NCBI GenBank assembly: GCA_963575745.1
Contig: CAUYUJ010000212.1
Span: 62,001-116,769 of the forward strand
Source of the DNA: Prorocentrum cordatum
Taxonomy: Eukaryota
Length of the DNA: 54,769 bases
Reading direction: 5' to 3'
In this document: one piece after another, positions 1 through 53,489 of the stretch
Layout: each line of letters opens with the position of its first letter
How positions within the stretch are numbered: position 1 is the stretch's first letter
The notes under the pieces: generated by a model
The model's input: the letters and a program-made list of their open reading frames with translations, nothing else
Told to the model about the DNA's origin: nothing
The model's database searches: none
Position numbers and translations under genes: made by a program

Positions 1-1030
1 CTCGCGAGCGCACCCCTCGGCCCCACTCGGAAGCATCCGCGCGCCAAAAACTCGGCCCAGCCACTCCGCCCGGAGGCCAGCATGAGCAAGAGGCACAACG
101 TCCATGGCCAACGACAGCCCCCGGCGAACGCTGGGCCACCACGCCCGCGGAGCCCCCCTAGCCTTCGCGAAGAAGCGATACACGGCGGAGAAGACCGACA
201 AGAGCGGGCGCCCCACTATGAAGAGGACGGCGCAGTGCCCGACGACGCGCGTCAGTTGCTGGGCCGATACCCTCGGCATCGCGAGCAGGGCCCAGGTGGC
301 CAGGGTGAGCCGCCAAGCCCTCCGAGGCGCCGGAGAGACGGCCCCGCGGCGCCCGTCGATCACCCAGCCTAGCAGCTGCGCCTGAAGCGCTACCGGCCCC
401 TCCTCGTGGACCCGCAGTCCACTCGAACGCAGCCCCGCCACAATGTCATCCGTCATCTGCTCTGCGACGGAGGGGCCCAGCGAGAGCGCGCCAAAATTGT
501 CGACCGGCGCCAGCCCAGCGCGGTCGGCGGCCGACTCGGCCACCTGCCGGTAGACCGCGAGCGCGCGGGACCAACCCACGGGCAGGACCGCGAGCCGCGG
601 CCAGACTTTCTGAGCCCGGCCCAGCCCCGCGCCAGCAGCCCGCCCCAGCCGCCACGCATCAAAGGGCGGCAGGGCGAAGCACGGGCGCCGCCCGGGGCGG
701 CTCCAGGTTGTAGAAGGCGCCCGTGATATCGGCCGGAGCCGCCCACAGGTTGTCGCCGCGGGGGAGCTCCAACGCCGCCCGCGCCGCCCCGGCAGCCAAG
801 CTAACGTCCGCGGGCGCGCCGAAACAAAAGTTATCGGACCCGGCATCCACGACAAGCCGCTGCCGCCCAGTCTTCTCGGGCACGCTGCAGAGAGCGACCT
901 CGCGCGCCACGCCCCGAAGGTCGTCGACGAGGTCGATGGCCCGGCGTCGAGCAGCCGCGTCAGCAGGGCTGCGCAGCGCCGGAGGTCGCGCAAGGCCGCG
1001 TCCACGCACGGCTTCTTGAAGCCTGCTCAA
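1..1030 (-). pseudogene. Reverse transcriptase/RNaseH region of the DIRS-like element, frameshifted
   Basis: ORF 659-1030 reads 'CSVPEKTGRQRLVVDAG..NFCFGAP..ADITGAFYNL'. Downstream frames give 'GWSRALAVYRQ' and 'PVDNFG' (degenerate YxDD/YVDN box). Confidence 0.7.
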
Positions 1031-1669: not shown

Positions 1670-2444
1670 GCCCCAGAGGCCCAGAGGCGGCCTCTGCTTC
1701 CTCCCGCAACTTGCGGGCGTTCTTCTTGAAGTGGCTGACGCGCTCGAGCTCCTTGCCGACGACGCCCAGGAGGGCTGGGCAAACCATGCTGCTCGGCCGG
1801 CTGGCCGCGCCGGTGCCACCCAGGAACGCGTTGGCCCCCTCCAGCGGCAGCTTCAACTGGCCGGCGCCCTGCCCCCGCTGCTTCTCGCCCCGGAAATGCT
1901 CGATAAGCTGCAACTTCCTCGCGAGCCGCTCGACCCCGACGAGGTTGGCCACATTGACCTCGTCGATGGCGGCCAAGTCTTCGAGCACCGCGCTGAGAGT
2001 TCGGCGCTTCAAAACGCCGAAGTCGGTCGTGCTAAGCCGCTTTCGAGCCTTCCAGCTCTCATGGCGCTGGATTGGCTCGCCCTCGCGCAGCAGCCAGGTC
2101 ACGCACCACGATGTGGATCGCGGCACCGGCGCGAACTGCGGGTCGGCAACCTCCTTGGCGACCTCTGCGACTGACTGCCAGCTCCGCGGCCCAACCGCGC
2201 CTGGCGCCGGGGCGAGCGTCCGAGCCGCGCCAGCGAACTAGGAAGTCTGCCCGGCGCCAGTCCTCTAGGAGGTAAGCCACGCACCCCATGCCGCCGGCGA
2301 GGGCGAGCACTGCCCGGCGGCCGGTCCGACACGACAGGACGACGCCGCTCATCGGCCCCACCTGGACGACGGATCCGAAGGCGAACGAACAGTCCACGTC
2401 CTCCACGAACACCCAGGCCCAGCCCTGCGGAGCCTCGCCGTTGG
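1670..2444 (-). pseudogene. C-terminal part of the DIRS-like gag/ORF1
   Basis: 'WAWVFVEDVD..GSVVQVG..DAR' (2059-2412 frame) and 'PIQRHESWK..LAAIDEVNVANLVGVERLARKLQLIEH' (960-2126 frame). It continues the 8533-9186 ORF once the insertion is removed. Confidence 0.6.
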
Positions 2445-2460
2445 GGCCATGTGTGAGGGG

Positions 2461-5400
2461 TCGGCCTCCGTTCCCCCTTTCGACGTGCCCTTCGTTGCGC
2501 CGTACTCGCTGCGGTTGCCCGCTGCAATTTCGGCGTCCAGATGGGCAGCACCCCTTATGACATCTGTTATGTAGTCAGACCACGCGCGATCGGCGCTCGG
2601 GAGAGCGACGGCGTCTCTGGTCTCCGGACCGAGAGTGGGCGAATGGAAGCCGAGGCCAGGATCCAGCGAACGATCCGCGTCCGATCGGCGATCGGGGTCC
2701 CAATCGACCGGCTGATCGGGCTGGTCGGCGGTGGCTGAGCTCGCGGCTACCTGCTGTCGAGGGAGGACACAAAAACAACCTGAACGCGAGGGAGGCGTCT
2801 GCCTCTTCAGCACAGGGGGGTCTGAACTAAGAGCCGGGGTCTTGATTTTGACCGTCTGTCGAAAGAACAACGGCTTAGCCAGAGCCAGCGGGCTCCTGCT
2901 TCGGGATTTCTTCAGCCGAATCGGATCCGGAGAGTCCTGGGAGCGGGAAGATTTTCCGTGCCGGGTCGTTCCTGGAGAGTCCCGTGTTCCGCGCCGCGGG
3001 GGCAGGGGAGGTGGGTTTCTCCTCCTGTGTCCAGATCCTCTGGGCGCTCTGGTGTCCAGATGCTCTGATGGAGCAGCAGCCGGGCGTGTCCTTGAAGACG
3101 TAACAGAAGCATGCGGCTTTTGAGCCGGAGCTGAGTCATCCCCTTGCCGTGGCTGGTCCTTCGTGGCGCCGCAGCACGGACAGGGCGCGCTAGTCGGAGC
3201 CAACTCGACCGTGTCGATTTCGCAGGCGTCCGTCGGGACGAAGGTATCGTCGCAGGCATGTGATTGCCATGTGACGGTGCCACAGCAGAGCAATTTGACC
3301 TTGCGCCTCGAATGAGCCTCTGGGCGTCGACGACAGTGCCCCCCCGGATTCGGTGGAGGCGGAAACACTAACTCCATGTTATCGGCGTCAACGTGTGGTA
3401 TGTAGTCGCGAACAGGGGCCCTCCGTGATGGTCCACCATCTGGTGGTGAGAGAACACACCCATCTTTTCTGCTCCAATGGATGGTCCAATCCTCATCCTC
3501 GACGAGACGACCCATGGAAATAACAGACGGACAACCTTTGAGAGCCAAAGAACCTGTGTGCAAGTTAATGGAAGGCACAGAAATATTGATGTGCTCATTA
3601 ACAACTCGATCGCCGTTTGCTGTTTCCAATACGTATTCATGTCCACGACGAATACCACATGTTTCAGCTTGAGTCAAATCGTCCTTGTCCGTGATGTGGT
3701 GCGCAGAACCACTATCCAAGACCCAAGACCGTGCGAGAACCGCGGGGGACTTTGCTGCAGTTTCCTGCTGCATGGTCCCTGCTGCAGTTCCCTGCTGCAC
3801 TAGCCCTGCTGCAATTCCCTGCTGCACTGCCCCGGCTGGGACAAGCGGCATGCAGGTGTCGAGGTCGTCGTCCAGGCGCTTGGTCAAACGGATGGCGTTC
3901 TCGATTGCCTCCTGGAGCGCATCCGCGGAGGTCTGCAGCCAGTGGTCCGGAAGAACATCAGGAACGTGGACCACATATCCCTGGTTAGGGGAAGTACGGT
4001 GTCGACGTATTTTGGTCTGAACAGGGAAGTAGTGAATCTCTGTGGCTGCAAAGTTCCATTGCAAGCCTTTCGGCGTCTGAGTCTTCCTGCCAGGGACTAC
4101 AGCGAGAGCGAAGGATCGTGGACGACAGACGTCAACTTGAGGTCGAAGACAGCCGGGAGGCCGATCACAAGGGCTCGGGTCGTGATCATTGCTTTGGCTG
4201 CTGCGGCGTCGGTCGCGGGAGGGGGAGCGCCGTAGTCGACAGGAGTCGTAACAGCGCGTGCCCCCCGGACTGTTGGACACTCGCGTGCTGTGTCCAAACT
4301 GGGGGCCTGGCGAGGCACCAGGCAGGGCGCCAGGCTCGGCGCCGGATTGGGAGCCGGGCTCGGAGCCGAGAAAGGTGCTGCGCTCAGAACAGCCGGGTTG
4401 GGGACCGGACTCGGAGCGGGACTGGGAGCCGGCAAAGGCGCCGGTCAGGGCGCCGGGCTCGGAGCTGGTCTGGGGGCCGTGCTCGGAGCCGGCCTGGCAG
4501 CCGGCGCGGGTGCCGGTCAGGGCGCCGGGCTCGGAGCTGGTCTGGGAGCCGTGCTCGGAGCCGGGGGGGGCGCCGCCAGGCAGCAGTGCGCCAGGTGGGG
4601 AACCGGGCTGGGAGCCGGCCTGGGAGCCGGCAAAGGCGCCGGTCAGGGCGCCGGGCGGCGAGCCGGGCTGGGGGTTACGCTCGGGGCCGGCCTGGGAGCC
4701 GGCGCGGGTGCCGGTCAGGGCGCCGTGTTTGGAGCGTATGACGTACACTCGGTTCCAGGGAGCGGCAGGTGACCGGGCCCTCGTGCTCGTGCTGCTCCGC
4801 TGGCTGGTACGGTCTGAGTCGCGAGAAGGTCGACGTCCGCGCTGGGAGTCGTCGTGGAGCGTGCCTTCCTGACCCTCATACCCGTCTTGGTTGGGAGCGG
4901 GCTGAGATCGCCAGTTATCCCAGGTCTGAGATTGGGAGGCGTCACGAGGAGGCTGCTGAGATCCCCCCGGACTCCTGGACGAACGGTGGTTTCGACCAGA
5001 TTTCGGTCCACGCGAGGGGCGGCGGCCACGGCTGTCCTGACTCCGCGGGCGGCTGATGCTCTGTGGCGGAGTCGCAGCGTTGGCTGCCAGGTGTGCGTAG
5101 GTGCACGCGTCGCCCTTGGCGCAGTGGCCTGCCTGGAAGTAGCTGCAGGCGGGCACGTGGGGGTAGCGGCAGCGGTCGCCGTACGAACAGGCACCAGTTT
5201 TGGCGAATTTGTGGCAAAAACGCGCGGCGCCGCCGTGAGGCTGCTGCGAGCCGGGTGGCTGGGCAGAACGCTGGGGCTGGCGAGAGTTCTCGCTGTGAGG
5301 GGCGCCAGTGTCAGGGCGGCTGCGGGAGTCCACCATGTGCAGGAGCTTGCACGCGTTTCCCTTGGGGCATTTGCCCTTGCTGAAGGGCACGCAGAAGCCA

Positions 5401-5801
5401 GTCTTCGGAGAGACGATGGCTGCGGTGTCCCTGTTGCCTGTCCTCAGGTGGTACTGGTTGCGCCGCGTTCGGTGTAGCTCAAGAACAGCTGTGACTCGGT
5501 GGTGGAGCCAAGTGTAACAGCGCTCTGGTGCCCCTTTAGGAGCTTTGTTGTACGTGTTCATGTCGTCCTTCATCCAAGGATGCAACTCAATCTGTGTACG
5601 AAACAGTGACTCCATAATGTTCGGCGGAGGAAGCTCCCGGAGCTCCAGGAGCAGTTGGTCCCACTCCGTCACGAACCTTTTGAGGTCATCTCCATGCATA
5701 CGTAGAGTGTTGATCCTTTCGAAATCATGAATCGTATCGTCGGCGTCGGTCACATCGTAATAACGCAAAATCTTCCAGTAGATCTGACGTCCCTTTATCA
5801 T
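2461..5801 (-). pseudogene. gag C-terminus with three CCCH zinc fingers, G/S/P/Q repeats and aspartic protease; truncated by the deletion
   Basis: ORF 2349-5801: 'IKGRQIYWKI..LKRFVTEWDQLL', CVPFSKGKCPKGNACKLLH, CHKFAKTGACSYGDRCRYPH, CSYFQAGHCAKGDACTYAH, and WVLDSGSAHHI..LETANG (~3600-3727). Confidence 0.8.
4320..4725. repeat. Degenerate GC-rich tandem repeats inside gag
   Basis: Recurrent 'gccggtcagggcgccggg' and 'gggagccggc' units encoding GALTG/GSEPG repeats. Confidence 0.8.
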
Positions 5802-8184
5802 GCGACCGTGCTTGTGCTGTGTTCTCCAGCAATTTGATATCCAGTTTCAATTCGCTGCTGAGAATCGCTTGTAAAGCTTCCGCGAACTTCAGATCCAAAC
5901 TTGCGAAATCACCGCTGTCCTGTAGATCTTCCAGTGTCACACCGGGCTGTTCTGCAACACAGAAGAACTTGTATGCAGCATCTGGACGCCCAGAGGCACT
6001 GCAGAAGGCCTTGCGGACTGCGTGCTGCCACTCAAGAACATGTCCGATTCTGGGAAGACCTGGAACACGCACACGCTCGCTCTCCTTCACCGGTGTGATG
6101 GTAGCAACAGGGCTCCCTCCGATGGTGTATTGAGACTGCATGACAGTAGCACCAAGGACGTTGGGCACTGGTGAGTGCGTGCGAAAGCTTGCAGCGTCGA
6201 AGTTTGCCTCCTGTGCAGGTGCTGCGGAAGCGGCCGGGGCCGCGGTCCTGCTGGCAGCTGACGGTGACACACGTCGGGCCTGTGGCTGGTAGCCAGCGGC
6301 TGGGGTTTCCCCCTGCACACCCCCCGCGTTCGAGGCAGGGGCGCCGGGAGAAGTGCGTCTGGAGGTCGGGGCTTGCGGTGGTACAGGTGTGTGCTGTGTA
6401 GCGTCAGCTACGTGGGCCTTGAAGTGGTCTTCGAGAATGATGTTGTCACGTTGCAACTGTTCGATGCAGCCTGAGAAACCATCAACATTCCTCTGGACCT
6501 CGCGGGTCTTGTCTGTAAGCACGGAATACTGTCGTTGAGTAGACTGGGAAAGGTCTGTAAGAAGAGAACGTAGCTGATCCATGTCGGCCTTTACGCGCGA
6601 CAGCTCCTGCTGCGTTTCCGCCAGGCGGGTCTGCACTTCAGATACCCGTGCCTTTCCAGCATCCCTCTCAGAGCGAAGCTCGTGTAACTGCCTTTGCACG
6701 TGGTCCGCCTCCGCACGCACGGTCCGTTGTACGGCTGCCAGTACGGCGGGGTCGTCAACCGAAGAAGGGGGCACCAGCTGGCCAGTCTGGGCCCTTACAA
6801 CGCGCAGCTCAGTCACGGCCTCTTCGAGAGTCAGGACTCTGGCGGTGAGCTTTGGGATCGAATCAACTTGGGAATCAGAGAGACGCTGGTTGACAGCATT
6901 TTCGGCTTGACAGAGTTTGCCGTAGAGATCTTGTTGGACTTGTTGGGTCTCAGCACGAAGATCAGATGTAGCAGACATCGTGGCGTCACGAAGCTCAATA
7001 ATCTGGCCCTGGAGAGCTGAGGGAGCCGCGCCGGCGCTGGCGGCAGCAACTGCTTGGAGTTCATCGTGGAGAAACTTGGCGCGAGTATCATTGTGGTCAC
7101 GCATATGGATAAAACGTGCTTCCAAATGAGAGAACTCGGAGTGCACAGCGGCAAGCTCGGAGCGGTCTTGGCCACGCTGAGCGGCAACAGCATCGACCTT
7201 CGAAACGAGTTGACACATGACGTGACGATCCTCGTACAACCTAGCGTCGACTTCCTGCAAACCTTTAGCGAGATCCGATCGCAAGATCGCAGTCTCAGTG
7301 GCGGTTGCCCGGTGCACGAGAGCAGTCTGATGCTCCACATACGTCTGTACCTGGTCTCTTAGCTCAGCCATATCTGTTAGGGGGACGGCGGCAGGCGCAG
7401 CCACAGGTGAGCTGACAGCGCGTCTTCGTGCCCTCTGGGAGGGACTGCGGCTGTGCAAATCCTGGGCTGCAATCTGGAACTGTTCGGGGCCACGTCTGTC
7501 ACGAGGCGAAGCTGCGCGAGAACGAGAAACAGTGACTTGACGACCGGCGAAGGCTGCGCCGTCGCGGGTCTGAGCACGAAACTCGAGGGCGCGGATGTGC
7601 TCTCGGACTGGCGTCACGGCACGGGTGACTGGGTTCCGTCCTGGCGCGCCGGCGTTCGCGTGACTCCCGCCCCAGCGGCGAGATCCTCCAGAGCCTCTCC
7701 GCACGGGACTTCCCTGTGGAGGCGAAAGAGCCTCCGAGTGGGCCCCCCCAGCAGGGGCCCGAAAAGTCGGGGTCAGATTTTGAGGAGGTTGAGGAGTCTG
7801 GAGCTGAGGATCTCCAGGAGCCACAGGGTGTCTCGCTCTGACAGCATTTCTGGGCGGATCATTCCGTGGCACGAGGACCTCAGCGCTCTGAAAGAGATGC
7901 TGCGCAGCACCCGAGCTGCGGTCTCCCGCTGCATCCGACACGACGGGCGACGCGACGGGATGAACGACTGACGACGAGGAAGGGGCCTGGAACTGAGGAG
8001 TACCAGGAGCGTGTCCTTGTCCAGCGTCAAGACCCTCAGTACCTGGAGAAATGGCCACACGATCAGCTCGCGGGATGCCATGCACGTCCATCAAAACTTC
8101 AATCTCCTGCTCCAAGTTGCGCGCCACGGGGTCCGCCACGCCGTCGCGAAGAGGCGCGGGGCCGAGAGGCGCACCGCCCTCCAT
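5725..8184 (-). pseudogene. gag N-terminus (long coiled coil plus start of the capsid-like domain), frameshifted at ~5810 relative to the downstream ORF
   Basis: 819-aa ORF with heptad-rich middle and 'DSGDFASLDLKFAEAL..KLLENTAQ', which continues as 'HGRMIKGRQI' in the next frame. Confidence 0.75.
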
Positions 8185-10639: not shown

Positions 10640-11759
10640 CTAACAAGACCTCTGGAGGTCTCTGAAGGTCCCCGGAGGCCTGCAGAGGTCCCAGGACGCT
10701 CCAAGAGCCTCTGGAGGCCTCGGGAGACCCCCAAAAAAATCAAATAAACCCTTCCAACAAATACATCGATCCTCGAAATTTCGAGAGCGACACCGACGAC
10801 GACGACGACGACGACGACGACCGAAGCCACCGTGGCGACCCTGGGCCGGCCAAGAAGCAGCCCCCGAATCCGGGCCGGCGCTGTGAGGAGAGGAGGGGGG
10901 AGATGAAGCAGCGGTGGCCGCCTCATCCCAGACGGCATCTCAGAAGACGAGAGTCCCCTCACGGTTGTGCCACTCGCTTCAGCGTCACGCTGGTCGGAGG
11001 GGAGGTCGGCTCCTCCTCTGGCTCCCCGGACTGTGGCGAATTGTTGCGAATTGTTGCGAATTACATTGAAGGGGCCCCAGGACACACAAATAAATACACA
11101 CAAATAAAAATATTCCCCATATTTTTCCATATTTTCTGGGTTTCTGTCTTCCCCCCACTTCCCATATTTTCCCATCTTTTCTGGGGAATCGAGGATTAAT
11201 TGTGTCTGTGTGTTTCTTTTCCTCCTGATACATGTACATCCGTACCCGCAGCCTTTTTGGCCCTGGGCGCTAACAGGCCCCGAGGCCCGCACCTCCGAGC
11301 GGGGTTCGCCTGCACGGTAGTTCCTGCAGGCAGGGCGGAGGCGAGCAGGCCTGGACATCGCACTGCAAAAAACGCGGGTCAGCCAGAGGGGATCAGAGGC
11401 GATTGGCCCACCCCCTGGTTGAGGCTGACTCTCACTGCGGCGGGCTCACCTCACGATTCGGCACTAGCTTCTGACACCGCATAACACCGCGAGCGCCCGC
11501 GGCCCTCCGACCGCGCAGATCGCTCGATTATCTGCCGACTCCAGGCCTCCGGCGGAGCTCAGCCTTGAACTCTCGAGCGGCAGACCTTGCCCACATCCAC
11601 GCCCTCGCGGTCTGAATTTCGAGGCGCGATGTGGTGGATGCGCGGTCGCACGGGCACGTTCCGCGCGGGGCGTCCACGAAGAAGACGCTCCGTGTCCAAG
11701 TGGTCGCGGCCCAGGGGCCCGGCCCGCGAGGCCGACGATACGGATACGTAAATACGTCT

Positions 11760-19555: not shown

Positions 19556-19655
19556 NNNNNNNNNNNNNNNNNNNNNNNNNNNNNNNNNNNNNNNNNNNNN
19601 NNNNNNNNNNNNNNNNNNNNNNNNNNNNNNNNNNNNNNNNNNNNNNNNNNNNNNN
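19556..19655. other. Assembly gap (100 N)
   Basis: N run; true length unknown. Confidence 0.99.
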
Positions 19656-21681: not shown

Positions 21682-21685
<4 letters not shown>

Positions 21686-21824
21686 GCGGCAGGAGAGGGG
21701 ACAGAATGTTTTCCCTTGAGCCACATGTGGCACGGACACGTACAAGATGGATCTCTGTCCATCGGTCCCCAGAGTGAAACACCAAAAGCTAAACCTACAC
21801 GTGAGATTATGGACCCCTGGAACA
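21682..21824 (-). repeat. 3' LTR (143 bp)
   Basis: Direct repeat of 31687-31829 with 2 substitutions. Confidence 0.97.
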
Positions 21825-21977
21825 TGGGTCCAACTTTCTCTAGGTTTAGCTGTCCCAAAACTCAATTCACCGGTCCGTGGCCACTGCCTGGCAGTGTCAA
21901 AACGACCTGCAAATGTTAAACGTGCGCAGCAGCAGAAAGATAGAGAGAGAGAGAGAGAGGCAGAACTAGAGAGCAGA

Positions 21978-24302
21978 CTATTGGAAAACAGATTCGGAGG
22001 ATGATAAAGGCGGAGGGAGAGAGGAGGAGGACGGGAGGACACTACCACCAGCAACCAGGCCAGGAGGAGCCCTCTGGTCCAGGTAGTCGAGCCATGCTAT
22101 CCAGGCGGGCTCTGACAGCATTCTTCTGGAGGCCGCCTGAGAGCGGTCTTTGCGCTCGGGCATGTCCTTCCGGCGGCCGACCTCTCGGGCCTCGCCCACC
22201 AGACTGAGCTTGCCGTTGGTCATCAAATCAAACAACGCGGCATTACACTTAGTCACGTCGTCCTTGGTCAAAGCGTCCACAGGCATACGGCCATGGGGTA
22301 TCCACCGTATCTTACCTCTGGCTCGTTCCAAGGACTCGCAAATGATGGCGAGGTCTAGAGCAGTACGCCTATCACGGGCCGAAGCGTTGCCTTCCTTCTG
22401 GAAGGTATCATAGATTGACTTGGCGTCCACCACGTGGACCTGTTGTTCCTGGGAACCCAAGCTACAATCGCGTCTTAAGACCGTAGTGAAGGGCCCTGAG
22501 GCCCGCACACAATCAGGCAGATCAACGTCCCTGAACACAACATCACGGTACAACACTTGAAGAAACTCGACTTCCGCCACGGCGGCCGAGAGAGCTTGAG
22601 TCTCCCCGGCTAGCGTCGAAGGCACCTTACGCCGTAGCTTACTGCTACGCCAACCGAGCACGGACGCTCTTACCACCTGATTATCGAGAACAGACTTGTC
22701 GGCAGCCAACACCATCCAGGCTCCCTGGGTGGGGTCGGCTGGGAGGCCATTGTCATCCTGGAGAGACTCTACCGAACCAACACCGCCGGCATCGGAAAAC
22801 GATATGAAAGACATACGCTCAGGGTCTAGCTGCCAGATCGTCAATCCTCGAGAGGCTGTTGCCCTCAGGTGCTTCACCAACTTGTTGGCACAAGACACGT
22901 CCGACACTGTCGGAGCCCGCAAACGACTGGCCAAAATACTTGCTACTCCGGCCGCTTCTGGCCGTGACTCTCGGCCGACCCAATTAAACTTGTAGACCAG
23001 AGAACGCAAAGCTTTGAACTCGGACGGCTCGAGAGGGGAATTCTTGACAGACAAGCGGCCCCGGGCCAGGGTCAGAAGACGGATTTCTTCCAGGATGTAC
23101 TTTTCCTGGTCGACAACGGCCTTACCGGGAAAAAAGGAAACACGCCTACCCGCAAAATCCACTGAGCCGGCATGACAGTCTCGATACTTCCCGAAACGGA
23201 AGCGGTCCTCTAGGATACCGCGAATCCACGCTCGGGCATCCGCATCCGCACTCCCGATAAAGAAATCGTCGACTTCCAGCAACATCATGTTCTGGATGGC
23301 CCCATCTGCTCGATACTTCAGCCACCAGCAGGGCTCCAGCAAACTTCTTTCGAACCCATGCTTTTCCAGATGGCCAACCACGGTGCGACGCCACGCTACT
23401 GGAGCATCGTCCAGCCCGTAAACGCTCACCAGCAATAGGATAAGGGATCCAGGCTCAACGTCGATACCCTCGCAAGGTTCAACATATATTTGGCCCTGGG
23501 ACCGCGTCATCGGATCTGACTGGGTGAAAGCGTTCTTGACATCCGCGATGTCTCCGAGCATCCTGAAATTGACCAGTACCTGAATGAACATCATAATAGA
23601 CGAGGTCTGGGGGGTGGGCGCATATACGGCGAGGGAGCCAGAGTCGGGATCCTTATGACCGTGCACGCACCACCTGGACTTCGCTTCGGGTTCCACGAAA
23701 GCCCCCTCAACTGGCTTCCATCGGCGCACCATTCGGCTGGATATGATCCTGCCCGGACAACGTTGCCGGATCTTCGCCGCCTGATTCGGAGGGATGACTC
23801 GGACACCCCCGGATTGCAGCATGGCTTTCCATTCTTTGTTGTCTGAAGCCTGAAACTTCTGACGCTCCTGAGGGGTGAGCCTCTTGAGGGTCACTTCTCC
23901 CCCGCGGCTAGCCGCAAAGGTGCCCCCGTCCTGAATGCTGTCGCCCACGGCCCCGGCAAACCCTTCGACGTTCCCAGGGACGACGGAGAGCCCGTCAATC
24001 GGCCCCGGGACCACGAAAAACTCGCTGGTGGCCTCTGCCTCGACTGTTCCCTCGGCTCCTCTGTTGCGATTTGGCGACCGTGACCTGGCTCGGGCTTCGA
24101 TGGCCTGAACACGCTCCTGGACAGACTGCTTCGGCTCGTCGCCGGCCCTGACAGGCCCCCGAGTCTCCGGCCCAGGTCCAGGGCCCCCAACACCGGAGGA
24201 GGAGGAGGCAATTCCACCGACGGGGTAAGGAGGGTAGGGGCCCGAGGAGGGTTCGGTCCTGGCTCTCTTTATCTCAGGAGGGGCGCTCCCGGCCCTCGCA
24301 GC
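21978..24302 (-). CDS. pol: pol C-terminus: reverse transcriptase plus RNase H (in frame with the upstream polyprotein after a single TGA)
   Basis: KSRWCVHGHKDPD, ADVKNAFTQ, YGLDDAPVAW, LEVDDF, FSDAG, AGETQA, VDAKS, VDALTK. I translated 24302-24012 and found no further stop. Confidence 0.93.
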   Translation of the reverse strand, partial: AARAGSAPPEIKRARTEPSSGPYPPYPVGGIASSSSGVGGPGPGPETRGPVRAGDEPKQSVQERVQAIEARARSRSPNRNRGAEGTVEAEATSEFFVVPGPIDGLSVVPGNVEGFAGAVGDSIQDGGTFAASRGGEVTLKRLTPQERQKFQASDNKEWKAMLQSGGVRVIPPNQAAKIRQRCPGRIISSRMVRRWKPVEGAFVEPEAKSRWCVHGHKDPDSGSLAVYAPTPQTSSIMMFIQVLVNFRMLGDIADVKNAFTQSDPMTRSQGQIYVEPCEGIDVEPGSLILLLVSVYGLDDAPVAWRRTVVGHLEKHGFERSLLEPCWWLKYRADGAIQNMMLLEVDDFFIGSADADARAWIRGILEDRFRFGKYRDCHAGSVDFAGRRVSFFPGKAVVDQEKYILEEIRLLTLARGRLSVKNSPLEPSEFKALRSLVYKFNWVGRESRPEAAGVASILASRLRAPTVSDVSCANKLVKHLRATASRGLTIWQLDPERMSFISFSDAGGVGSVESLQDDNGLPADPTQGAWMVLAADKSVLDNQVVRASVLGWRSSKLRRKVPSTLAGETQALSAAVAEVEFLQVLYRDVVFRDVDLPDCVRASGPFTTVLRRDCSLGSQEQQVHVVDAKSIYDTFQKEGNASARDRRTALDLAIICESLERARGKIRWIPHGRMPVDALTKDDVTKCNAALFDLMTNGKLSLVGEAREVGRRKDMPERKDRSQAASRRMLSEPAWIAWLDYLDQRAPPGLVAGGSVLPSSSSLPPPLSSSESVFQ

Positions 24303-27300
24303 TCAAATGCAAGCTGGGACGTCCTCAGGCTGGGTGAGGCGCCCCCTCGTCTTAGGTCTCGCCCCCTCTGGTGAAGACGGGGTGACAGGGGAAAGAGAAC
24401 TGGGAGACGCAGGCAAAGGAGGAGGAGCAGGAGCAGGTAAGGAAACAGGACGAGGAGAGGACGGAGGAGGGAGGAGTTCTGGACTCTCTTGATCCCCTGG
24501 CTCGACCTCGGCGGATCCTGAGCTAACTCCTCGAGACAACTGCCGACTGAGAGACGGCGTTGCCGACTCTTCTCTGTCTGAAGGAGCCAGCTCGGAAATA
24601 GAGGGCAGCCCGGTCCTGTCCGAGCCTGGTTGAGCTACAACCGATCCGGCACGAGAGAGAGACCCCCTGGGGGGCCTCCGAGGAAGCCCAAGAGTCCCGC
24701 CCACTGACGGGGGAGAGGGTCGATTCTCCGGTCCTTGCTCCTCGGCTGGCACTGGCCCAGCTCCGGGGACCCTTGGTTCTGAGTCGAGCTCGGCCTGTGC
24801 CGCCTCGTCCCAGGCACTCTCGGGAGGGGGGCCCTCGCGCTGAACGTCCACAGCGGTCACCCGCCTCGCCTGAGCCGAACGAAGCAGCTCCTGCCATCTA
24901 GGGTCTTCGGCCAATTGAAGGCCGTACTCTTCCTCAGGGCTAGCAAGCCTGACTTGCTCGGCTGAACATTTCCAGAGACGGGCCCGGACCGCCACCCACA
25001 CCGTGCCGCCCTCGGCAAGCACCACGACCCCGGGACCCGTCCAGCCGGCACGACGGCGCCCTAGGGCGTCGGCCCTGGACGATATTCTGGTGAAATGCCT
25101 CCAGACGAAGACCCACTGGCCGGGGGTAAATCTCTTGGTCCCAGGGGTCCTCGCCCGGGCTGCTCGGGACAGCTTGTCTCGGGCCGTGGCTTCCATGGCA
25201 AGCCTACGGGCCGCCGCTCGGATAGCGTGGGCCCTGGCAAACTCGGCTCCCGCCTCGTCCTGCTCTGAGGAGGGGCTCGCGACATCCTGCCACCCGGGCA
25301 AAGCCCGTCGATCGTCGGACAAGAGCTCATGCGGAAGGCGCGGGATTTCTCCAAAAACCAACTGGAGAGGTGAAAAGCCACCTCGATGCCAAAATCGGTT
25401 CTTATGCGCCACCAGCTCAAACACCAGATCATCCAGCTCCTGGAGTGATGAGGGAAAGGACGTCCCGGACTCTAGCTCAATACGGACTCGGTCCTTGACC
25501 CAGCCACCGTGTCTCTCCACTCGTCCGTTCTGCCAGGGACTGTCCGCGTCGCAGACATGATGACAAACTCCCCACTGTTCCAAGCCTCGGGCGAACCGAG
25601 CTCCAAACTCCGAGCCCCCATCCGAGATGATCAGATGTGGCGCGCCCAACGGTCGGACCCAGGACCTCAGAAACTCGGACCAGACAGCGGCCGACGTCGC
25701 GGCCTCGACCCGGGTGACGACCTGCAGGTTCGACCCGTGGTCGACGATGTTGAGATAGGGATACGTCGTACCTTGAAAGTCGAGGTAGAAGAGATCAACC
25801 CCCACGATGTGATTAAAACGAAAGGTCCTGGGCAGAGCAACCCGACGATGGGCCCCCGACTGCGATCGTTCCGCACATTCCGAACAAACAAAATGCTGAC
25901 GCACCCATCTCACCAAGTGCTGTTTGGTGCCGCCAGCTCGAAGAACCCGAAGAAATTTTCGTTTGTCGGGATGGCCCATGTTGCAGTGCAACTTGTATAT
26001 TAACCGTTTCTCGTCCTCATTGGGCTGAGGATCGGGCTTCCCAGACACATCTCCCCTCGTTCTGTTCTGAAAGGGTGGTCGGGTCTCGGGCTCGTCGTCG
26101 CTTTCGTCCGAACCTTCGGGCTCGCCTTCGCCGCCAATTGCTTCCCCGGCCTCCGCAGCCTCGCCGGGGACTCCTTCCGCCAACTCCGCCCAGGAAGACT
26201 GCCTGGCCCTGGGGGCTCCGGACCAATGTTCGGCGACAGCCCTGGCGACAGTGCGCACGAACAAAGGGGGGTAACATGCCGCTTTGGTAGTAACCGAGCC
26301 TCCCTCCAGAACAGCGTGCTTGTGTTCCCCCGTGCAGAGGTGACCGTCTAAGAGCCGCAACACCTCGGGGTGGTTGGACAAAATTCCCGTGGGTTTCTTA
26401 TTAGGCCCCCTGTCGTCCACCCTCATTCCAAACTGGCACATGTCGAGCCGGATTCGTCGAACTCCCGGGAGGTCCCACACGCACTTGACAACATGCGTTC
26501 CCCAGGAGGAAGCGTAAAGAGAGTGTTCGAACGCAAAGAACCGTCCGTGTCGGACCTGATAGTCAGCTATCCTCATGCAAAGGAAAAGGTCTCGGAGGCC
26601 GTCCCGCACTAGTGACCTCCAGTCCCCAGGGTCCATCCGATCCCGATTCAACCTATTGATCGCGGAAAAGGCCCGACACTCGGAACACAGCCAGATCATT
26701 TCGGGTCGATCGGTCCTGATCGTCTCCCAGAGGCGATCGACTTCCGTTCTTTGAGCGGCGCCCCAACCGACCTTGAGGTCCCACGAGGCCTCCTCTCCCA
26801 CAGGGGCCCCAATTTTCTTAACGGCAGGAGCAATCCTAGGAGGGGAGAACACTTCCATGAAAGCCACCTTGGATCGTCCCGGAGTGACCGACGCGTCGAC
26901 AGGAAAGGTCCCTGGGAGGGCTCCAGTTGCCCTGGCTGCTGCCTCGCCGAGAGCCTTTCTCACTTGAGATCCGCAAGCGACCTCATGGTCGTCGTTCATC
27001 CAATCTCCGTCGAGCCACTCGGGCCCGACCAGGAGTCTCTGCACAGTGGGAGGGTAGGTAGGAGAATGGGCTGTCGACGGGCTCTCTGGTGAGCCCCTGT
27101 CGGAGACGGCAGCGCAGGCGCAGTCCAAACGACTGCACCTTGAACTCTGCTGCTGCTGGCCCGAAGCCCCTCGGCTCGGGCCGGCGACTGAAGAACGAGG
27201 AGTGACGTCCAAAGACGACGCTACATCTCGTCGTCCTTGTCGCTCTCGTACAGAATCTCCCAAGGCGTTGTCACTGCCGTGGCCCAGACCTGCCGCGTGC

Positions 27301-30300
27301 CCTCGGGCTCCGGCGAGGAAGCACCCGCCTGTGAGCTGTCCGGTTCCTGCAACGGAAGCTCTTGGTTCGCTCCGACAGCGTTGGCCACCTGCACGAGCCC
27401 CATCACCGCCGTCCCAATCTCCACGGTCATCTGCGCCATCTGACCCATTGACTCCTCGATGTTGCCGACCGACAGCGACAGGGTGCTCATCTGCTCCGTC
27501 AGGTAGTCGAGGGACTCCCCCATCGGCTCCAGTGCCTCCAGGGTACGACGGAGCCGAATGAGCGCTTGATGGATCTGCTGCAGGCCCTCCTCCAGCTGAC
27601 TGCTGGTCTGAAACTGTGCTTGACTGGCATATTGTGCAATCTGCTCGACCACCTCTTGCACCTTTCCGAGGGATCGAATCCCCTCGGGGATCTGGTGCAG
27701 CTGCCACTGTAGTGCGTTGAGGTATCCGTTCAGGTCGTTGGCCGTCTGCAGTGCTGCCGCCCCTGTCTGAAACACAGGATTCTCCTGCATGATCTGGACC
27801 GTCCGCTCGGCAGCAGCTGCCGCTCGTCTGGCCGCCTCTGCTGCGGACTCCGGCCTCGCTGCCGGCCCGCCGTCCTGCTCGCCACCGCTGCCGCGTGGCA
27901 CCCATGTGAGCTTGTAGCCGCAGAACTTGCACTTCGTGCCCGAGCCGTACTGATTGCCGTACGATGTGGCCTGCGAGTGGTTGCAGTTGTTCACCAGCTT
28001 GGGCGGGGGCGGCTTGACTGCGATCGATCTCGGCTTCAGCGGTGCCGCCACCCGCCGGGCTGGGATGGCTGCTGCTGCTGCCGCCGAAATCGGAGCTGCA
28101 GCTGCTGCTGCAGTTGTCATTTCTCCGTCGTCGCTCTGGTTCGTGACCAGCTGCATCGATGCCTGATCCTCGTCGCGGCCGTGGTGGATCCCCGGCGCTG
28201 CCCCCGAGGCACCTGCACTCGGCGTCCCTCCGTGGCCCAGCAGTCGTGCCGACCTCGCCTTCGGTGGACCTGGAAACTGCCCCTGGACTCCGGCCATCCA
28301 TGGCATCGGCGACGCTGCTGGCTGAACGCTGGAGGCTGCTGCTGGATTCGGCCCCGGCGGAGGGTCCGACGGCGGAGGGGGCGCCTGAAGCAGGTACTGC
28401 TGGTACTCCATCGTCAGGATGGGCGCCCCGTCCATCAGGTAGCCGGCCACTCCTCGGTCGGGCACTCCATCGGGTCCGGCGGCCGCCATCGCCCGGGCCC
28501 AAGTCATCAGCTGGGCGGGCAGCTGGTTGGGCACTCCAGGATGGGAAGGCGGTCCGCTCGGCGTCGTAGTGGCCTCCGCCAGCGCCTCCACCGGCGTCTC
28601 GACCGCCTGGCTCAGCACCGCCCTGGCAGCATCTCCTCGACCGTCGCTGCCGTCGCCTCTGCTGTTGCCGCCTCCGGGCGGCTGAGTGGTGGACCCGCGG
28701 AACTGGGGAGCTCCCTGCACTGAGAGGATCCCCCTCAGGATAAACATGGAAATCGTTATGAACTTCATCATTGCGCCGGACGATGCCGGCAGGACGCTGC
28801 GATCGTCGGCTCAACTGTCGATGCCGGGAAAGCCACGAGCAAAGACTCGAGCCAAAAGAGGCCACGGACAACACATACACGAGAGCCCTTGGGCCCCAGC
28901 TGCCGATGAGGTCGAGAGCTCCCTTGCCGATGGGCTCGAGAGCCCTGCCCCGCCCTCCGTTGCTGTTGTCCAAGACCTTAGTGCGCCCCAAAGATCCTGA
29001 GCCCGTGACCTGTTCGAAGCGGGCCCGCTGAGCCCAACACACGATGAATAGGCAGACCACGACTGCGACGATTGAGACGACCGAGTAGCCCAGGCACGGC
29101 GATCCCCTCGGATCCCTGCTTGGCGTTCTGCTCGAAAACCCCCTTGGTCTAGACCCCGCACGACTTGACCCGGACCCTGCTCGCCTCGACTTAGCTCTAA
29201 ACCGAAGGATGGAGATGATGAGGTGAGGGATGTACTGCGTCACAGTTCCATCTGCCAGCATCTTCGGAGGCTTCTCATTGCCAAGGGTGAATGACCCCTC
29301 CGTCAGAAAAGGATAGCGCTGGAGGGCCGACGCTGGGACTGTCGGCGGCTCCTCCAGGGAACGCACGATCTCTACCATCCTGTGCCCGGAACCCAGGCGT
29401 GTCATGGCCACGGTCGTGCGCAGGGTGCCGGAGCGAAGCCTGTTCCTCGGTAAATCAATCACGCTCTCTAGAAAGTCCAGAAGATTGACGCTCAAAATGT
29501 GAGGGACAGCCTCTCCGAGCACAGTGGTGTCTACGATGCCAAAGACGCCACCTAAACACAACGGAAAAAGTATAGCGCTCACGACCTTGGCCTGGCCTCC
29601 AACTCCGTGGGCCCCACGAAGGTGCGTCCGATGTTCAGCAGGAATCTCGACGCACCTGAGGCCGTGGGTCGCGAGCGCCTCGGACTCCCTGTTGAGAGCC
29701 TCCACGCCTACCAGATCAGTCCCCGCCCCGGGGTCGACCAGGCCCTGGGTCGACGAGGCCGCCAGAAAGATCGACCCTGACGCGATCTCCTCCTCGATCC
29801 CGCGCCACGCCGGCGCTGCCCACATGTCGTCACTGCCGAACGCCACCCCGTCGAACATGTAGGACGAGGCCTTCCTGATGGGAGTCTTCTTGACGGAGAC
29901 CTCCCGCTTGACAGCGTCCTTCTTGGTGCTGCTGACGTTGGGGCACTCACGCCCCCAATGGCCCTTCTCGTGGCACAGCTTGCACTTGGTGACCTTCATC
30001 AGCTGCTCCTGAGTGAGGAAGCGTCGCCTGCCCTGAGGAGGCCGGTGTCCTGCTCCTCCAGCTCCGCCTCCACGCTCGTCACGTTCTCGTCGCTGGCGAC
30101 CTCCTCCTCGCCCGGCTGGCCGAGAAGGATGAGAGGCCCTGCCACTGCCTCGACCTCGGGAGCCAAAATATTCTCGATCGCGTCGAGCTGCGCGCTTGAG
30201 GTCCTTGTTCTGCTTCCAGGACCTGTTGTTCGTCAGCTCGGCCAGCACCAGCTCGGCGTCGTCCTCCTCGACGTCCATGTCATCGATCTCCGCGAGGAGG

Positions 30301-31547
30301 GCCGCCACGTCCTCTTCCTCGAGCTCGTCCGACTCGTCGGCTCCCTCGTCGTAGTCATCCTCTTCGTCCTCGACCACCTGGTAGTTGGCATCCTCCGACC
30401 TACCTTCACACCGACCGAGGTTAGGAGGGGAGGAGGAAGGCTGAAAAGCACCAGCGTCCGAGCGAGCGCTCGGCCCTAGGTCTTCAGACGCTGCCGCTAG
30501 CATGCTGCCTGTCCCGGCTTTGCCGGGAAGCAGGCGCTCAGTGCCGGCTGATGAATCAAGCTGGCGCAGTGCCCACTTCACGCTGCTGTAGGTCAGGTCT
30601 CCGCGAGTGAGCGTGCGCAAGTTCTGCACGCCCTGCTGAGTGAGATTGGCCCCTTCCTCTAGGAAGAGACCCTTGAGCTTGTCGGACATCCACAAGTCGT
30701 GGCCCTCCGCGTCGATGAACTCTGCTCCACGACGACTCACGTACTGGGTGAGCGTCTCCTTGGAGTCGCGGACGGCCTCGTATAATGCTTTTCGTCCTGC
30801 CCGTCGTAGCTCGTCTCCTTCGCGCTCCCCGATCATCAAGTCCATGCGACTGAGGAGCGTCTGCAACCATGAGGATGCGGTGAGCTCCTTGTCCGGGATG
30901 TCCTCGAATTTGGCCTGCATCGTCCAGTCGAAGAGCCGCATGAACTTCTCCGACCTCCTCCAGACCGCTACGTCGGTGTTGTCGTTCCAGCGCCGAATGG
31001 CTCGGCGCCATTGTCTATAGTGGGCCCAGCCGGGCCACGCTGGAGGGTCCGAAAAATCACCTCGGCCCCCAGTCCATTGGCCTGGCCACCAGTTGCTGTT
31101 CCAGCTCGAGCCCCAGTCCTGGTGCTCGTCCCACTTCTGGTCCTCCTTCACGTCGTCCTTGTCGCCGGGCGGGCGCCGCTGTCCTGAATCTCCTGCTGCT
31201 TCTCCGCTGCCCACCTCGGCGGCTGGTCTGGTTCTGCTGCTGCTCCACGGGTCGGCCCCCGTGCCGTACCATGGGTCGGCCACCGTCGGTGCTGTCTCTG
31301 GCGGTGGCCGCTGCTGCTGTTGGCCAAAATGGCCGAGCGCCCGCACGGTTTCCTGGACCGCGGACTGTATTGCCCGAGTGAGCGTCTCCTGATCAATCGT
31401 CGTCGCCGCCGCGACCGTAGAGCCTGATGCTGCTGCTCCCGCCGTCGACCCCTCAGCTCCTCGGGCTGCCAGGACGGCGAAGGTCTCCTCTCGTCCATCG
31501 CCTCCTGGGGCGATTGGCGGCGGCTGCCGCTCACCATCTGCGGGCAT
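24303..31547 (-). CDS. gag-pol: gag-PR-spacer-DNMT-integrase polyprotein (likely ATG at 31547, first in-frame ATG downstream of the PBS)
   Basis: Zinc knuckle CKLCHEKGHWGREC (~29943-29985), protease GLVDPGAG (~29720-29750), integrase HHCC (LHCNMGHP..CSEC) and D,D,E (GVDLF, SDGGSEF, NGRVER). Confidence 0.92.
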   Translation of the reverse strand: MPADGERQPPPIAPGGDGREETFAVLAARGAEGSTAGAAASGSTVAAATTIDQETLTRAIQSAVQETVRALGHFGQQQQRPPPETAPTVADPWYGTGADPWSSSRTRPAAEVGSGEAAGDSGQRRPPGDKDDVKEDQKWDEHQDWGSSWNSNWWPGQWTGGRGDFSDPPAWPGWAHYRQWRRAIRRWNDNTDVAVWRRSEKFMRLFDWTMQAKFEDIPDKELTASSWLQTLLSRMDLMIGEREGDELRRAGRKALYEAVRDSKETLTQYVSRRGAEFIDAEGHDLWMSDKLKGLFLEEGANLTQQGVQNLRTLTRGDLTYSSVKWALRQLDSSAGTERLLPGKAGTGSMLAAASEDLGPSARSDAGAFQPSSSPPNLGRCEGRSEDANYQVVEDEEDDYDEGADESDELEEEDVAALLAEIDDMDVEEDDAELVLAELTNNRSWKQNKDLKRAARRDREYFGSRGRGSGRASHPSRPAGRGGGRQRRERDERGGGAGGAGHRPPQGRRRFLTQEQLMKVTKCKLCHEKGHWGRECPNVSSTKKDAVKREVSVKKTPIRKASSYMFDGVAFGSDDMWAAPAWRGIEEEIASGSIFLAASSTQGLVDPGAGTDLVGVEALNRESEALATHGLRCVEIPAEHRTHLRGAHGVGGQAKVVSAILFPLCLGGVFGIVDTTVLGEAVPHILSVNLLDFLESVIDLPRNRLRSGTLRTTVAMTRLGSGHRMVEIVRSLEEPPTVPASALQRYPFLTEGSFTLGNEKPPKMLADGTVTQYIPHLIISILRFRAKSRRAGSGSSRAGSRPRGFSSRTPSRDPRGSPCLGYSVVSIVAVVVCLFIVCWAQRARFEQVTGSGSLGRTKVLDNSNGGRGRALEPIGKGALDLIGSWGPRALVYVLSVASFGSSLCSWLSRHRQLSRRSQRPAGIVRRNDEVHNDFHVYPEGDPLSAGSSPVPRVHHSAARRRQQQRRRQRRSRRCCQGGAEPGGRDAGGGAGGGHYDAERTAFPSWSAQPAARPADDLGPGDGGRRTRWSARPRSGRLPDGRGAHPDDGVPAVPASGAPSAVGPSAGAESSSSLQRSASSVADAMDGRSPGAVSRSTEGEVGTTAGPRRDAECRCLGGSAGDPPRPRRGSGIDAAGHEPERRRRNDNCSSSCSSDFGGSSSSHPSPAGGGTAEAEIDRSQAAPAQAGEQLQPLAGHIVRQSVRLGHEVQVLRLQAHMGATRQRWRAGRRAGSEAGVRSRGGQTSGSCCRADGPDHAGESCVSDRGGSTADGQRPERIPQRTTVAAAPDPRGDSIPRKGARGGRADCTICQSSTVSDQQSAGGGPAADPSSAHSAPSYPGGTGADGGVPRLPDGADEHPVAVGRQHRGVNGSDGADDRGDWDGGDGARAGGQRCRSEPRASVAGTGQLTGGCFLAGARGHAAGLGHGSDNALGDSVRERQGRRDVASSLDVTPRSSVAGPSRGASGQQQQSSRCSRLDCACAAVSDRGSPESPSTAHSPTYPPTVQRLLVGPEWLDGDWMNDDHEVACGSQVRKALGEAAARATGALPGTFPVDASVTPGRSKVAFMEVFSPPRIAPAVKKIGAPVGEEASWDLKVGWGAAQRTEVDRLWETIRTDRPEMIWLCSECRAFSAINRLNRDRMDPGDWRSLVRDGLRDLFLCMRIADYQVRHGRFFAFEHSLYASSWGTHVVKCVWDLPGVRRIRLDMCQFGMRVDDRGPNKKPTGILSNHPEVLRLLDGHLCTGEHKHAVLEGGSVTTKAACYPPLFVRTVARAVAEHWSGAPRARQSSWAELAEGVPGEAAEAGEAIGGEGEPEGSDESDDEPETRPPFQNRTRGDVSGKPDPQPNEDEKRLIYKLHCNMGHPDKRKFLRVLRAGGTKQHLVRWVRQHFVCSECAERSQSGAHRRVALPRTFRFNHIVGVDLFYLDFQGTTYPYLNIVDHGSNLQVVTRVEAATSAAVWSEFLRSWVRPLGAPHLIISDGGSEFGARFARGLEQWGVCHHVCDADSPWQNGRVERHGGWVKDRVRIELESGTSFPSSLQELDDLVFELVAHKNRFWHRGGFSPLQLVFGEIPRLPHELLSDDRRALPGWQDVASPSSEQDEAGAEFARAHAIRAAARRLAMEATARDKLSRAARARTPGTKRFTPGQWVFVWRHFTRISSRADALGRRRAGWTGPGVVVLAEGGTVWVAVRARLWKCSAEQVRLASPEEEYGLQLAEDPRWQELLRSAQARRVTAVDVQREGPPPESAWDEAAQAELDSEPRVPGAGPVPAEEQGPENRPSPPSVGGTLGLPRRPPRGSLSRAGSVVAQPGSDRTGLPSISELAPSDREESATPSLSRQLSRGVSSGSAEVEPGDQESPELLPPPSSPRPVSLPAPAPPPLPASPSSLSPVTPSSPEGARPKTRGRLTQPEDVPACI
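25350..26000 (-). other. Integrase domain (HHCC plus DDE core)
   Basis: KLHCNMGHP, CSEC, VGVDLF, IISDGGSEF, PWQNGRVERHGG, GFSPLQLVFG. Confidence 0.92.
26240..26870 (-). other. C5 cytosine DNA methyltransferase-like domain within the polyprotein
   Basis: FMEVFSPPR (motif I position), WDLKVGW, WLCSECRAFS (motif IV position), FAFEHS..SSW (VI), DMCQFG, KKPT (VIII), AACYPP. The layout matches DNMT domains of dinoflagellate retrotransposons as I recall them. Confidence 0.8.
27221..28771 (-). CDS. Nested 516-aa ORF in the +1 frame of the polyprotein: signal-peptide-like N-terminus, CxH...CxxC motif, long heptad coiled coil; function unknown
   Basis: ATG start, protein-like composition while the polyprotein frame here is R/G/S/A-rich filler; first ATG after an SL-like motif; NCNHSQATSYGNQYGSGTKCKFCG. 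Confidence 0.8.
   Translation of the reverse strand: MMKFITISMFILRGILSVQGAPQFRGSTTQPPGGGNSRGDGSDGRGDAARAVLSQAVETPVEALAEATTTPSGPPSHPGVPNQLPAQLMTWARAMAAAGPDGVPDRGVAGYLMDGAPILTMEYQQYLLQAPPPPSDPPPGPNPAAASSVQPAASPMPWMAGVQGQFPGPPKARSARLLGHGGTPSAGASGAAPGIHHGRDEDQASMQLVTNQSDDGEMTTAAAAAAPISAAAAAAIPARRVAAPLKPRSIAVKPPPPKLVNNCNHSQATSYGNQYGSGTKCKFCGYKLTWVPRGSGGEQDGGPAARPESAAEAARRAAAAAERTVQIMQENPVFQTGAAALQTANDLNGYLNALQWQLHQIPEGIRSLGKVQEVVEQIAQYASQAQFQTSSQLEEGLQQIHQALIRLRRTLEALEPMGESLDYLTEQMSTLSLSVGNIEESMGQMAQMTVEIGTAVMGLVQVANAVGANQELPLQEPDSSQAGASSPEPEGTRQVWATAVTTPWEILYESDKDDEM
28846..28868 (-). other. Internal DinoSL-like motif upstream of the nested ORF
   Basis: TCCGTGGCCTCTTTTGGCTCGAG versus TCCGTAGCCATTTTGGCTCAAG: 19 of 22 SL bases match with a 1-nt insertion. 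Confidence 0.85.
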
Positions 31548-31673
31548 CTCTCTGCCGTGGATCCCACGCTGCTCAGTGGTCAGAGCGAAGCCTGGCTCCG
31601 GGGCGCGCAAGCGCAGAGCGGCCTGGCCGTCACAGCCAGCCTCTCGCGCCCATGGCCTCCGGGCCGGACCCCG

Positions 31674-31684
31674 CTCCGCTACCA
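31674..31684 (-). promoter_or_regulatory. Primer-binding site, probably for the tRNA-iMet 3' end
   Basis: TGGTAGCGGAG begins 2 nt after the 5' LTR; similar to the TGGTAGCAGAG complement of eukaryotic initiator tRNA. Confidence 0.8.
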
Positions 31685-31686
31685 AC

Positions 31687-31829
31687 TGTGGCAGCAGGAG
31701 AGGGGACAGAATGTTTTCCCTTGAGCCACATGTGGCACGGACACGTACAAGATGGATCTCTGTCCATCGGTCCCCAGAGTGAAACACCAAAAGCTAAACC
31801 TATACGTGAGATTATGGACCCCTGGAACA
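31687..31829 (-). repeat. 5' LTR (143 bp)
   Basis: TGTTCC...GCCACA on the minus strand; followed by the PBS. Confidence 0.97.
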
Positions 31830-53467: not shown

Positions 53468-53489
53468 TACGTAGCCATTTGGGCTCAAG
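53468..53489 (+). other. Relic dinoflagellate spliced leader
   Basis: TACGTAGCCATTTGGGCTCAAG versus TCCGTAGCCATTTTGGCTCAAG: 20 of 22 match. Confidence 0.93.

Follow-up and report, generated by a model that had tools for sequence, protein, structure and literature searches.

The locus analyzed here raises the question of why both LTRs of a dinoflagellate retrotransposon contain a block that resembles the spliced leader (SL) of dinoflagellates. The question matters because dinoflagellate genomes are full of retrogenes that carry relic leaders. In the relevant passages of two papers, retrotransposons are put forward as the source of the reverse transcriptase behind these retrogenes at the level of a suggestion (PMC12014239, PMC3942190). 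A copia element with two leader relics, one in the LTR and one before an embedded reading frame (ORF-X), would testify directly, at the sequence level, to the passage of leader-capped RNAs through copia replication. In addition, dinoflagellate promoters and terminators are barely known. If the block is R, the element would provide a testable map of a dinoflagellate LTR, with the start and the poly(A) site within 28 nt of each other.

We analyzed a window of 54,769 nt from a contig of Prorocentrum cordatum. We suggest that the block probably has SL ancestry. More tentatively, we favor a specific form of this reading, which falls somewhat short of being probable. It holds that the block is a decayed, DNA-encoded descendant of the SL and now forms the first 22 nt of R. 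The block, its place and its identity in both LTRs, its SL-like score, a second relic in the element and an adjacent AAAAC are direct observations; from these we infer the SL ancestry, the boundaries of R, the transcription start and the poly(A) site.

The element and its class

The element is a 10,148-bp Ty1/copia-type LTR retrotransposon that lies on the minus strand inside a (GA)n tract (Table 1). The class assignment is based on the direct LTRs with TG..CA ends and on an RVT_2-type reverse transcriptase (RT) with the integrase upstream. The integrase was recognized by motifs in the translation, and its Pfam matches are weak (E 0.12-0.18). The LTRs are in direct orientation and are identical at 141 of 143 positions, the differences being A/G at position 27 and T/C at position 137. 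As for a target-site duplication, the flanks of the element agree over 4 or 6 nt, not 5. The open frames between the LTRs comprise 2,496 and 774 codons and are split by one TGA, at which there may be readthrough or which may have arisen by nonsense mutation in this copy. A coding-like GC pattern by codon position is seen in the gag-protease region. The PBS is presumably of the initiator tRNA-Met (tRNAiMet) type; there are no tRNA genes in the window. Outside the element, Pfam detected no other RT or integrase in the 28 ORFs scanned out of 87 of at least 180 aa.

Two features near the 3' LTR can be recorded here. At its junction with the internal region a nested hairpin is predicted (21783-21852, minus strand; -30.7 kcal/mol, z -3.4), in which GCTAAACCT pairs with AGGTTTAGC and TGGACCC with GGGTCCA. 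The purine tract AGAGAAAG lies 10 nt ahead of the 3' LTR and does not adjoin it.

Table 1. Features of the element and a leader relic outside it, in window coordinates
Feature	Position	Strand	Remarks
5' LTR	31687..31829	-	143 bp, TG..CA; direct repeat family D6
SL-like 22-mer TCCGTGCCACATGTGGCTCAAG, 5' LTR	31720..31741	-	LTR positions 89-110; proposed R start
AAAAC, candidate poly(A)-site motif	31713..31717	-	2 nt past SL-like block; proposed R end
PBS TGGTAGCGGAGCGGGG	31669..31684	-	starts 2 nt past 5' LTR
gag-protease part of main frame	28900..31547	-	first in-frame ATG 31547; from translation
Zinc knuckle in gag-protease	29937-29987	-	zf-CCHC matches below Pfam cut-offs
Internal SL relic TCCGTGGCCTCTTTTGGCTCGAG (putative)	28846..28868	-	score 14, attained in 1% of simulations; chance peaks 0.01 per window
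Embedded ORF-X	27221..28771	-	516 codons from first ATG; frame +1 relative to gag-pol
Integrase core (DDE)	25464..25802	-	HHCC and D..D..E motifs in translation; upstream of RT
Single in-frame TGA	24303..24305	-	between integrase and RT frames
Reverse transcriptase, Pfam RVT_2 (Ty1/copia type)	23193..23705	-	E 1.2e-12, 48.4 bits, cut-off 31.6
3' LTR	21682..21824	-	143 bp; direct repeat with 5' LTR
SL-like 22-mer TCCGTGCCACATGTGGCTCAAG, 3' LTR	21715..21736	-	same sequence as 5' LTR block
AAAAC, 3' LTR copy, candidate acting poly(A) site	21708-21712	-	counterpart of 31713..31717
Near-canonical DinoSL relic, retrogene type	53468..53489	+	20/22, score 18; outside element

Spliced-leader ancestry versus chance

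The first-pass annotation described the block as an SL mimic that is built into both LTRs and retains a large part of the leader. Its account of the location stands. CCGTGCCACATGTGGCTCAAG occurs exactly twice in the window, at 21715-21735 and 31720-31740, on the minus strand in both cases and with 0 mismatches, and at least two matches were found in 0 of 100 shuffles. It occupies LTR positions 90-110, with 33 nt remaining to the LTR end, and it lies in sense with gag-pol, 35 nt upstream of the PBS. The account of the likeness has to be modified, since the canonical A between CCGT and GCCA is lost and a C is inserted.

The canonical DinoSL is given as DCCGTAGCCATTTTGGCTCAAG in passages of two reports (PMC7245778; bioRxiv 10.1101/783902). 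When the T that precedes the block is included, the resulting 22-mer TCCGTGCCACATGTGGCTCAAG agrees with DinoSL at 19 of 22 positions in a gapped alignment (score 13). The changes are the deletion of the A at position 6, the insertion of a C after GCCA and two substitutions. Among 300 first-order Markov simulations of the window, 2.7% attained a score of 13; the chance expectation is 0.027 peaks per window. Without gaps, the match is 15/21. The centre of the block is not SL-like. ATTTTGG, the part of the leader with the Sm site, is replaced by ACATGTGG. After the terminal CTCAAG the sequence reads GG, not a GT donor. The block was picked post hoc, since an earlier reader had scanned the whole window. 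Taken alone, its SL likeness is borderline.

The palindrome to which the changed loop was said to give rise does exist, and GCCACATGTGGC is perfect over 12 nt. However, such palindromes are common by chance. The number expected per window is about 15.7, compared with an observed 41 that are non-dinucleotide; moreover, DinoSL itself supplies 8 of the 12 palindromic positions, GCCA/TGGC being already present in the leader. We therefore rejected the palindrome as a significant feature.

It is somewhat unlikely, though far from negligible, that the likeness arose by chance. The block would then be ordinary LTR sequence, perhaps a palindromic site for protein binding or RNA pairing, and would have CCGT and TGGCTCAAG in common with the SL by coincidence. 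An ungapped match of 15/21 is indeed expected about 1.1 times per window (200 dinucleotide shuffles), and two unrelated loci in the window, 11246 and 2910, reach 15-16/21. The simulated frequency of the gapped score, the abundance of 12-nt palindromes and the post hoc choice of the block also fit with chance. The changes relative to the SL cluster in the loop, which would be rare under neutral decay and argues against SL ancestry, as do the modest ungapped match and the centre of the block.

Against chance, and for SL ancestry, is the number of comparable loci. Three independent loci in the window score at least 13, compared with 0.027 expected, and two of them lie within this single 10-kb element, both in its sense orientation. 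The block also has the SL's length of 22 nt, a junction that is not GT, and AAAAC adjacent to it. The GG after the block points to a mature SL junction, not to an SL RNA gene. The near-canonical relic at 53468-53489 shows that this genome carries SL relics and, like the Prorocentrum cordatum homologues of ORF-X, marks it as dinoflagellate-like. A long (CAT)n tract immediately precedes this relic, and an ATG-initiated GC-rich ORF follows at a distance of about 70 nt; judged by its sequence, the relic is a typical retrogene 5' end.

The two SL-like blocks of the element have a further property in common. In both, the internal AG (SL positions 6-7) is destroyed and the terminal AG is kept, while the retrogene-type relic at 53469 keeps AG at SL positions 6-7. 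According to passages of PMC3229502, this internal AG is the acceptor that is re-used in relic SLs. The shared loss (n=2) is suggestive, and it is one of the reasons for favoring a decayed SL in R. Relic SLs often include a truncated leader, beginning at SL position 8, in tandem right after a full one. A tandem truncated SL was not found beside the LTR block, and a scan of the window for truncated SLs at a score of at least 10 returned only 53489 and 31319. No Rfam family matched anywhere in the window. A stretch at 11240-11266 (plus strand), TCCGTACCCGCAGCCTTTTTGGCCCTGG, is weakly SL-like, with 16/21 ungapped and a gapped score of 11, a level expected about 0.3 times per window by chance.

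Relatives of the element also bear on the ancestry of the block. Among the 22 public sequencing runs listed, the matches were of DNA type only, and the best run contained 0.39 of the words. Four runs were aligned to the element at 85% likeness, and their contigs are known from 30-letter end summaries. Since 817 contigs with graded similarity to the element came from run X1, the element belongs to a multi-copy family. One contig of run X2 departs from the element at 31696. In sense, it reads CTCAAG-CCC-AAAAAC-GTTCATCC.., followed by the shared TGCTGCCACA, and we read it as a diverged U5 in which CTCAAG and the A-run are retained. In four X1 contigs the agreement with the element extends over U5 and TGGCTCAAG and breaks off at 31728. 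Before TGGCTCAAG their consensus, which is noisy (agreement 0.51), has ..TTCCTACTTTTTT. This stretch agrees with the leader at 7 of 13 positions, the T-run lost here among them; this is a weak result (hand-calculated binomial about 0.02). Indels among the X1 copies fall in 31699-31716, which is U5. SL ancestry is favored by the X2 variant, since CTCAAG..AAAAAC is kept there while the remaining U5 differs. It is also favored by the four X1 contigs, since their agreement with the element covers U5 and the end of the block and is then lost. Retention of CTCAAG in a diverged LTR variant also speaks against a chance match. The conservation is seen in a few contig ends, which limits its weight.

A metagenome scan with the 18-nt PBS returned 33 loci, 31 of which look bacterial or unrelated. 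The marine metagenome contig L016 has the identical 18-nt PBS with an ATG-initiated ORF after it, and it looks like a retroelement 5' end. At 154-170 (plus strand), 51 nt before the PBS, it carries ACATTTGGGCTCACGAG, which is like a truncated SL and whose score of 9 is the best of 37 loci. The ORF of L016 has no detectable relation to the gag of our element and no Pfam family, and another locus, L019, has no SL-like stretch. We treat the stretch in L016 as an anecdote only. L016 is the sole other retroelement-like locus with this PBS that was found outside the window, and its weak score and unrelated protein count against the reading of the block as a decayed SL in R. In viral contigs, a scan with the RT protein found no relative, and a 20-mer made of the LTR end plus the PBS had 0 matches there and 0 in prokaryote genome contigs. 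A motif-gap-PBS pattern gave four matches in viral contigs; these contigs are phage-like and we judged the matches to be chance.

A candidate R region and its possible origin

In the standard scheme of reverse transcription, the 5' end of the RNA is copied into minus-strand strong-stop DNA, which ends up in both LTRs. We hypothesize that reverse transcription once acted on an ancestral element RNA that had acquired an SL at its 5' end by trans-splicing. Strong-stop DNA would then have written the SL into both LTRs, where it would have become the first 22 nt of R. U3 would correspond to LTR positions 1-88, and R would extend from position 89 to about 116. The sequence suggests a minimal R of about 28 nt, made up of the SL-like 22-mer, GG and AAAA, with AAAAC as the putative poly(A) site in the 3' copy. 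U5 would cover positions 117-143, to be followed by 2 nt and then the tRNAiMet-type PBS. With a transcription start at the block or close to it, the block itself would be transcribed from DNA. It would provide most of the approximately 28-nt homology for first strand transfer and would be inherited as the variant. The element RNA would then begin with an SL look-alike.

The variant block was presumably present in the template at the last transposition, because both young LTRs (2/143 differences) carry the identical version. The simplest reading of this is that R starts with the variant and that the variant is transcribed from DNA. The first-pass annotation had also considered that the mimic provides the homology for first strand transfer to a genomic RNA that starts with a true SL. 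We disfavor this idea, since every new copy would then receive the canonical SL in both LTRs by way of strong-stop DNA, and both young LTRs share a non-canonical version. The accompanying proposal that R starts at the block is plausible. It gains indirect support from the closeness of the block to the PBS (35 nt) and from the AAAAC that lies 2 nt downstream, though the RNA start itself is a point that we infer. As to the further suggestion that the RNA might look trans-spliced although no SL is added, the sequence speaks neither for nor against it; the Sm-site part of the leader is lost. A function of the LTR block as an SL mimic, be it in capping, translation or packaging, is unsupported.

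The candidate poly(A) site deserves separate comment. In dinoflagellates the exact poly(A) site is described, in passages of PMC2488372, as a "miniature poly(A)" in the genome, in which G or C comes after 3-5 A. AAAAC is of this type, and its location 2 nt after the block favors the preferred explanation of a decayed SL in R. It is the sole A-run of at least 3 in the LTR. In the 10,148-nt sense strand of the element there are five AAAA[CG] sites, two of which are the LTR copies. The motif was spotted post hoc, and we treat it as a hypothesis. Run X16, which is guessed to be RNA, has 6 short pieces, and its 240-nt contig spans the whole 3' LTR. If X16 is RNA, reading through the whole 3' LTR would be a poor fit with a poly(A) site at AAAAC.

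Alternatively, the element could undergo live trans-splicing at the block, though we consider this quite improbable. Transcription would start farther upstream, within U3, and the SL acceptor would be the terminal AG of the block (CTCAAG/G). The mature RNA would consist of the true SL followed by GGAAAAC, and the block would be strand-transfer homology or the end of the outron. That both element blocks have kept the terminal AG and lost the internal one would fit with such use. Relic SLs are known as re-used acceptors (PMC3229502, in part of its text). In the retrotransposon Cer1 an SL1 acceptor lies close to the 5' end; it is used only for a subgenomic mRNA, and the full-length RNA must skip it, as described in passages of PMC3315495. 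However, strong-stop DNA made on a true SL would overwrite the variant in a single cycle, and the young LTRs have kept it. Furthermore, no polypyrimidine tract is available for the putative acceptor.

Just as improbable, in our view, is that the present function of the block lies in RNA structure, whatever its ancestry. The 5' half of the block with its CAUG centre would pair with GCCAUGGGCGCG past the PBS, and this leader stem would close around a U5-PBS hairpin. Retroviruses have U5:AUG pairing and dimerisation palindromes, and we offer this as a resemblance. The predicted leader fold from 31741 has an energy of -54.4 kcal/mol (z -4.0), and none of 200 shuffles was as stable. In this predicted fold the PBS is paired with the final 14 nt of U5. 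The long-range stem recurs in 3 of the 3 folding windows that hold both arms, and the pairing would account for the clustering of changes in the SL loop. However, the U5-PBS hairpin alone already has a z of -2.65, and some X1 copies skip the partner region 31588-31659. The hairpin of the block itself is unstable (z -0.05), and we rejected a stable local hairpin for this reason.

Finally, it is very improbable that U3 captured part of an SL RNA gene, or the intragenic promoter of such a gene, for precise Pol II initiation: an intragenic promoter within the SL exon is an idea from nematode work and both ends of the SL exon are retained, but the block is not followed by a GT donor or by intron-like sequence, it lacks the Sm-site part, and there is no Rfam match in the window. 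A functional SL RNA gene would have a GT donor after the SL exon and an intact Sm-binding AUUUUGG, and the GG in place of GT, together with the replacement of ATTTTGG by ACATGTGG, does not agree with this.

ORF-X, related systems and the surrounding window

The second SL relic of the element is internal, and the start codon of ORF-X lies 74 nt past it. Codon-position GC places the coding signature from about 28793 to 27300 in frame +1, not in the main frame. The gag-pol frame remains open across ORF-X and has no codon signature of its own there. Only two homologues of ORF-X were found, both Prorocentrum cordatum proteins, with 71% and 46% identity; the former (P0004) has the same start (MKFI..) and the same end (..DKDDE). 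The product has a signal-peptide-like N-terminus and a coiled-coil C-terminal half, and its Pfam matches are weak and of coiled-coil type. No Atlas match was obtained for ORF-X and no poly(A) remnant was seen after its stop. A longer, fused homologue was not found either, which is weak evidence. Because the putative SL relic precedes this conserved ORF, the element would have taken in cDNA of a leader-capped RNA at least once.

Potentially, the implications extend further, though we regard the full scenario as unlikely. The copia family would have built the SL trans-splicing of its host into its life cycle, with R as an SL derivative and with the relics in the LTR, ahead of gag, and before ORF-X as marks of where separately trans-spliced mRNAs of a polycistronic retrotransposon begin. 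The RT and capsids would have handled SL-capped RNAs, and such elements would be the retrogene engine of dinoflagellates.

A close parallel comes from the relic DinoSLs of dinoflagellate retrogenes, for which passages of two papers set out the model of Slamovits and Keeling (PMC3229502, PMC7245778). As described there, the relics are mutated, DNA-encoded 22-nt leaders in sense orientation that are explained by reverse transcription of trans-spliced RNA, and the LTR block would be of the same kind. Unlike these relics, the block lies in an LTR, is duplicated at both ends and would be copied at each transposition, and it is not upstream of a cellular gene. It also differs in having no tandem truncated relic and in having lost the internal AG acceptor. 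In the gene for the peridinin-chlorophyll a-protein of Amphidinium carterae, a genomic SL-like sequence lies at the exact trans-splice site, as reported in part of PMC2488372. The same text already floats the possibility that a DNA-encoded SL yields a leader-bearing message without trans-splicing, which equals the mimic idea of the first-pass annotation. The Amphidinium carterae case concerns a cellular gene with a close SL copy, whereas the present one concerns a retrotransposon LTR with a diverged copy.

Among retrotransposons, the Ty1-copia-like SmTCL elements of Symbiodinium microadriaticum are about 10 kb long with near-identical recent copies (PMC5776459). They share with our element the copia type, the length of about 10 kb, the integrase upstream of the RT, the LTRs and a dinoflagellate host. 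The likeness is one of description, and the main text of that paper has no mention of an SL-like LTR motif or of an embedded ORF preceded by an SL. The C. elegans element Cer1 is, like ours, an LTR retrotransposon in a host with SL trans-splicing. It differs in being of gypsy type, and no SL copy in its LTR is reported in the corresponding passages of PMC3315495. Trans-splicing of Cer1 was shown there by RT-PCR, whereas the present element is known from sequence alone. Full-text searches of the literature yielded no account of an SL-like motif inside an LTR.

Across the window as a whole, repeats of the types (CAT)n, (CAA)n, (CTT)n, (CCT)n and (GA)n are abundant. An assembly gap of 100 N, at 19556-19655, lies within trinucleotide repeats. 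On the minus strand, a long ORF at 2352-5846 encodes CCCH zinc fingers and a Torus domain, with Pfam E values down to 2.4e-12. Of the 28 scanned ORFs that lie outside the element, it alone received a non-TE Pfam assignment.
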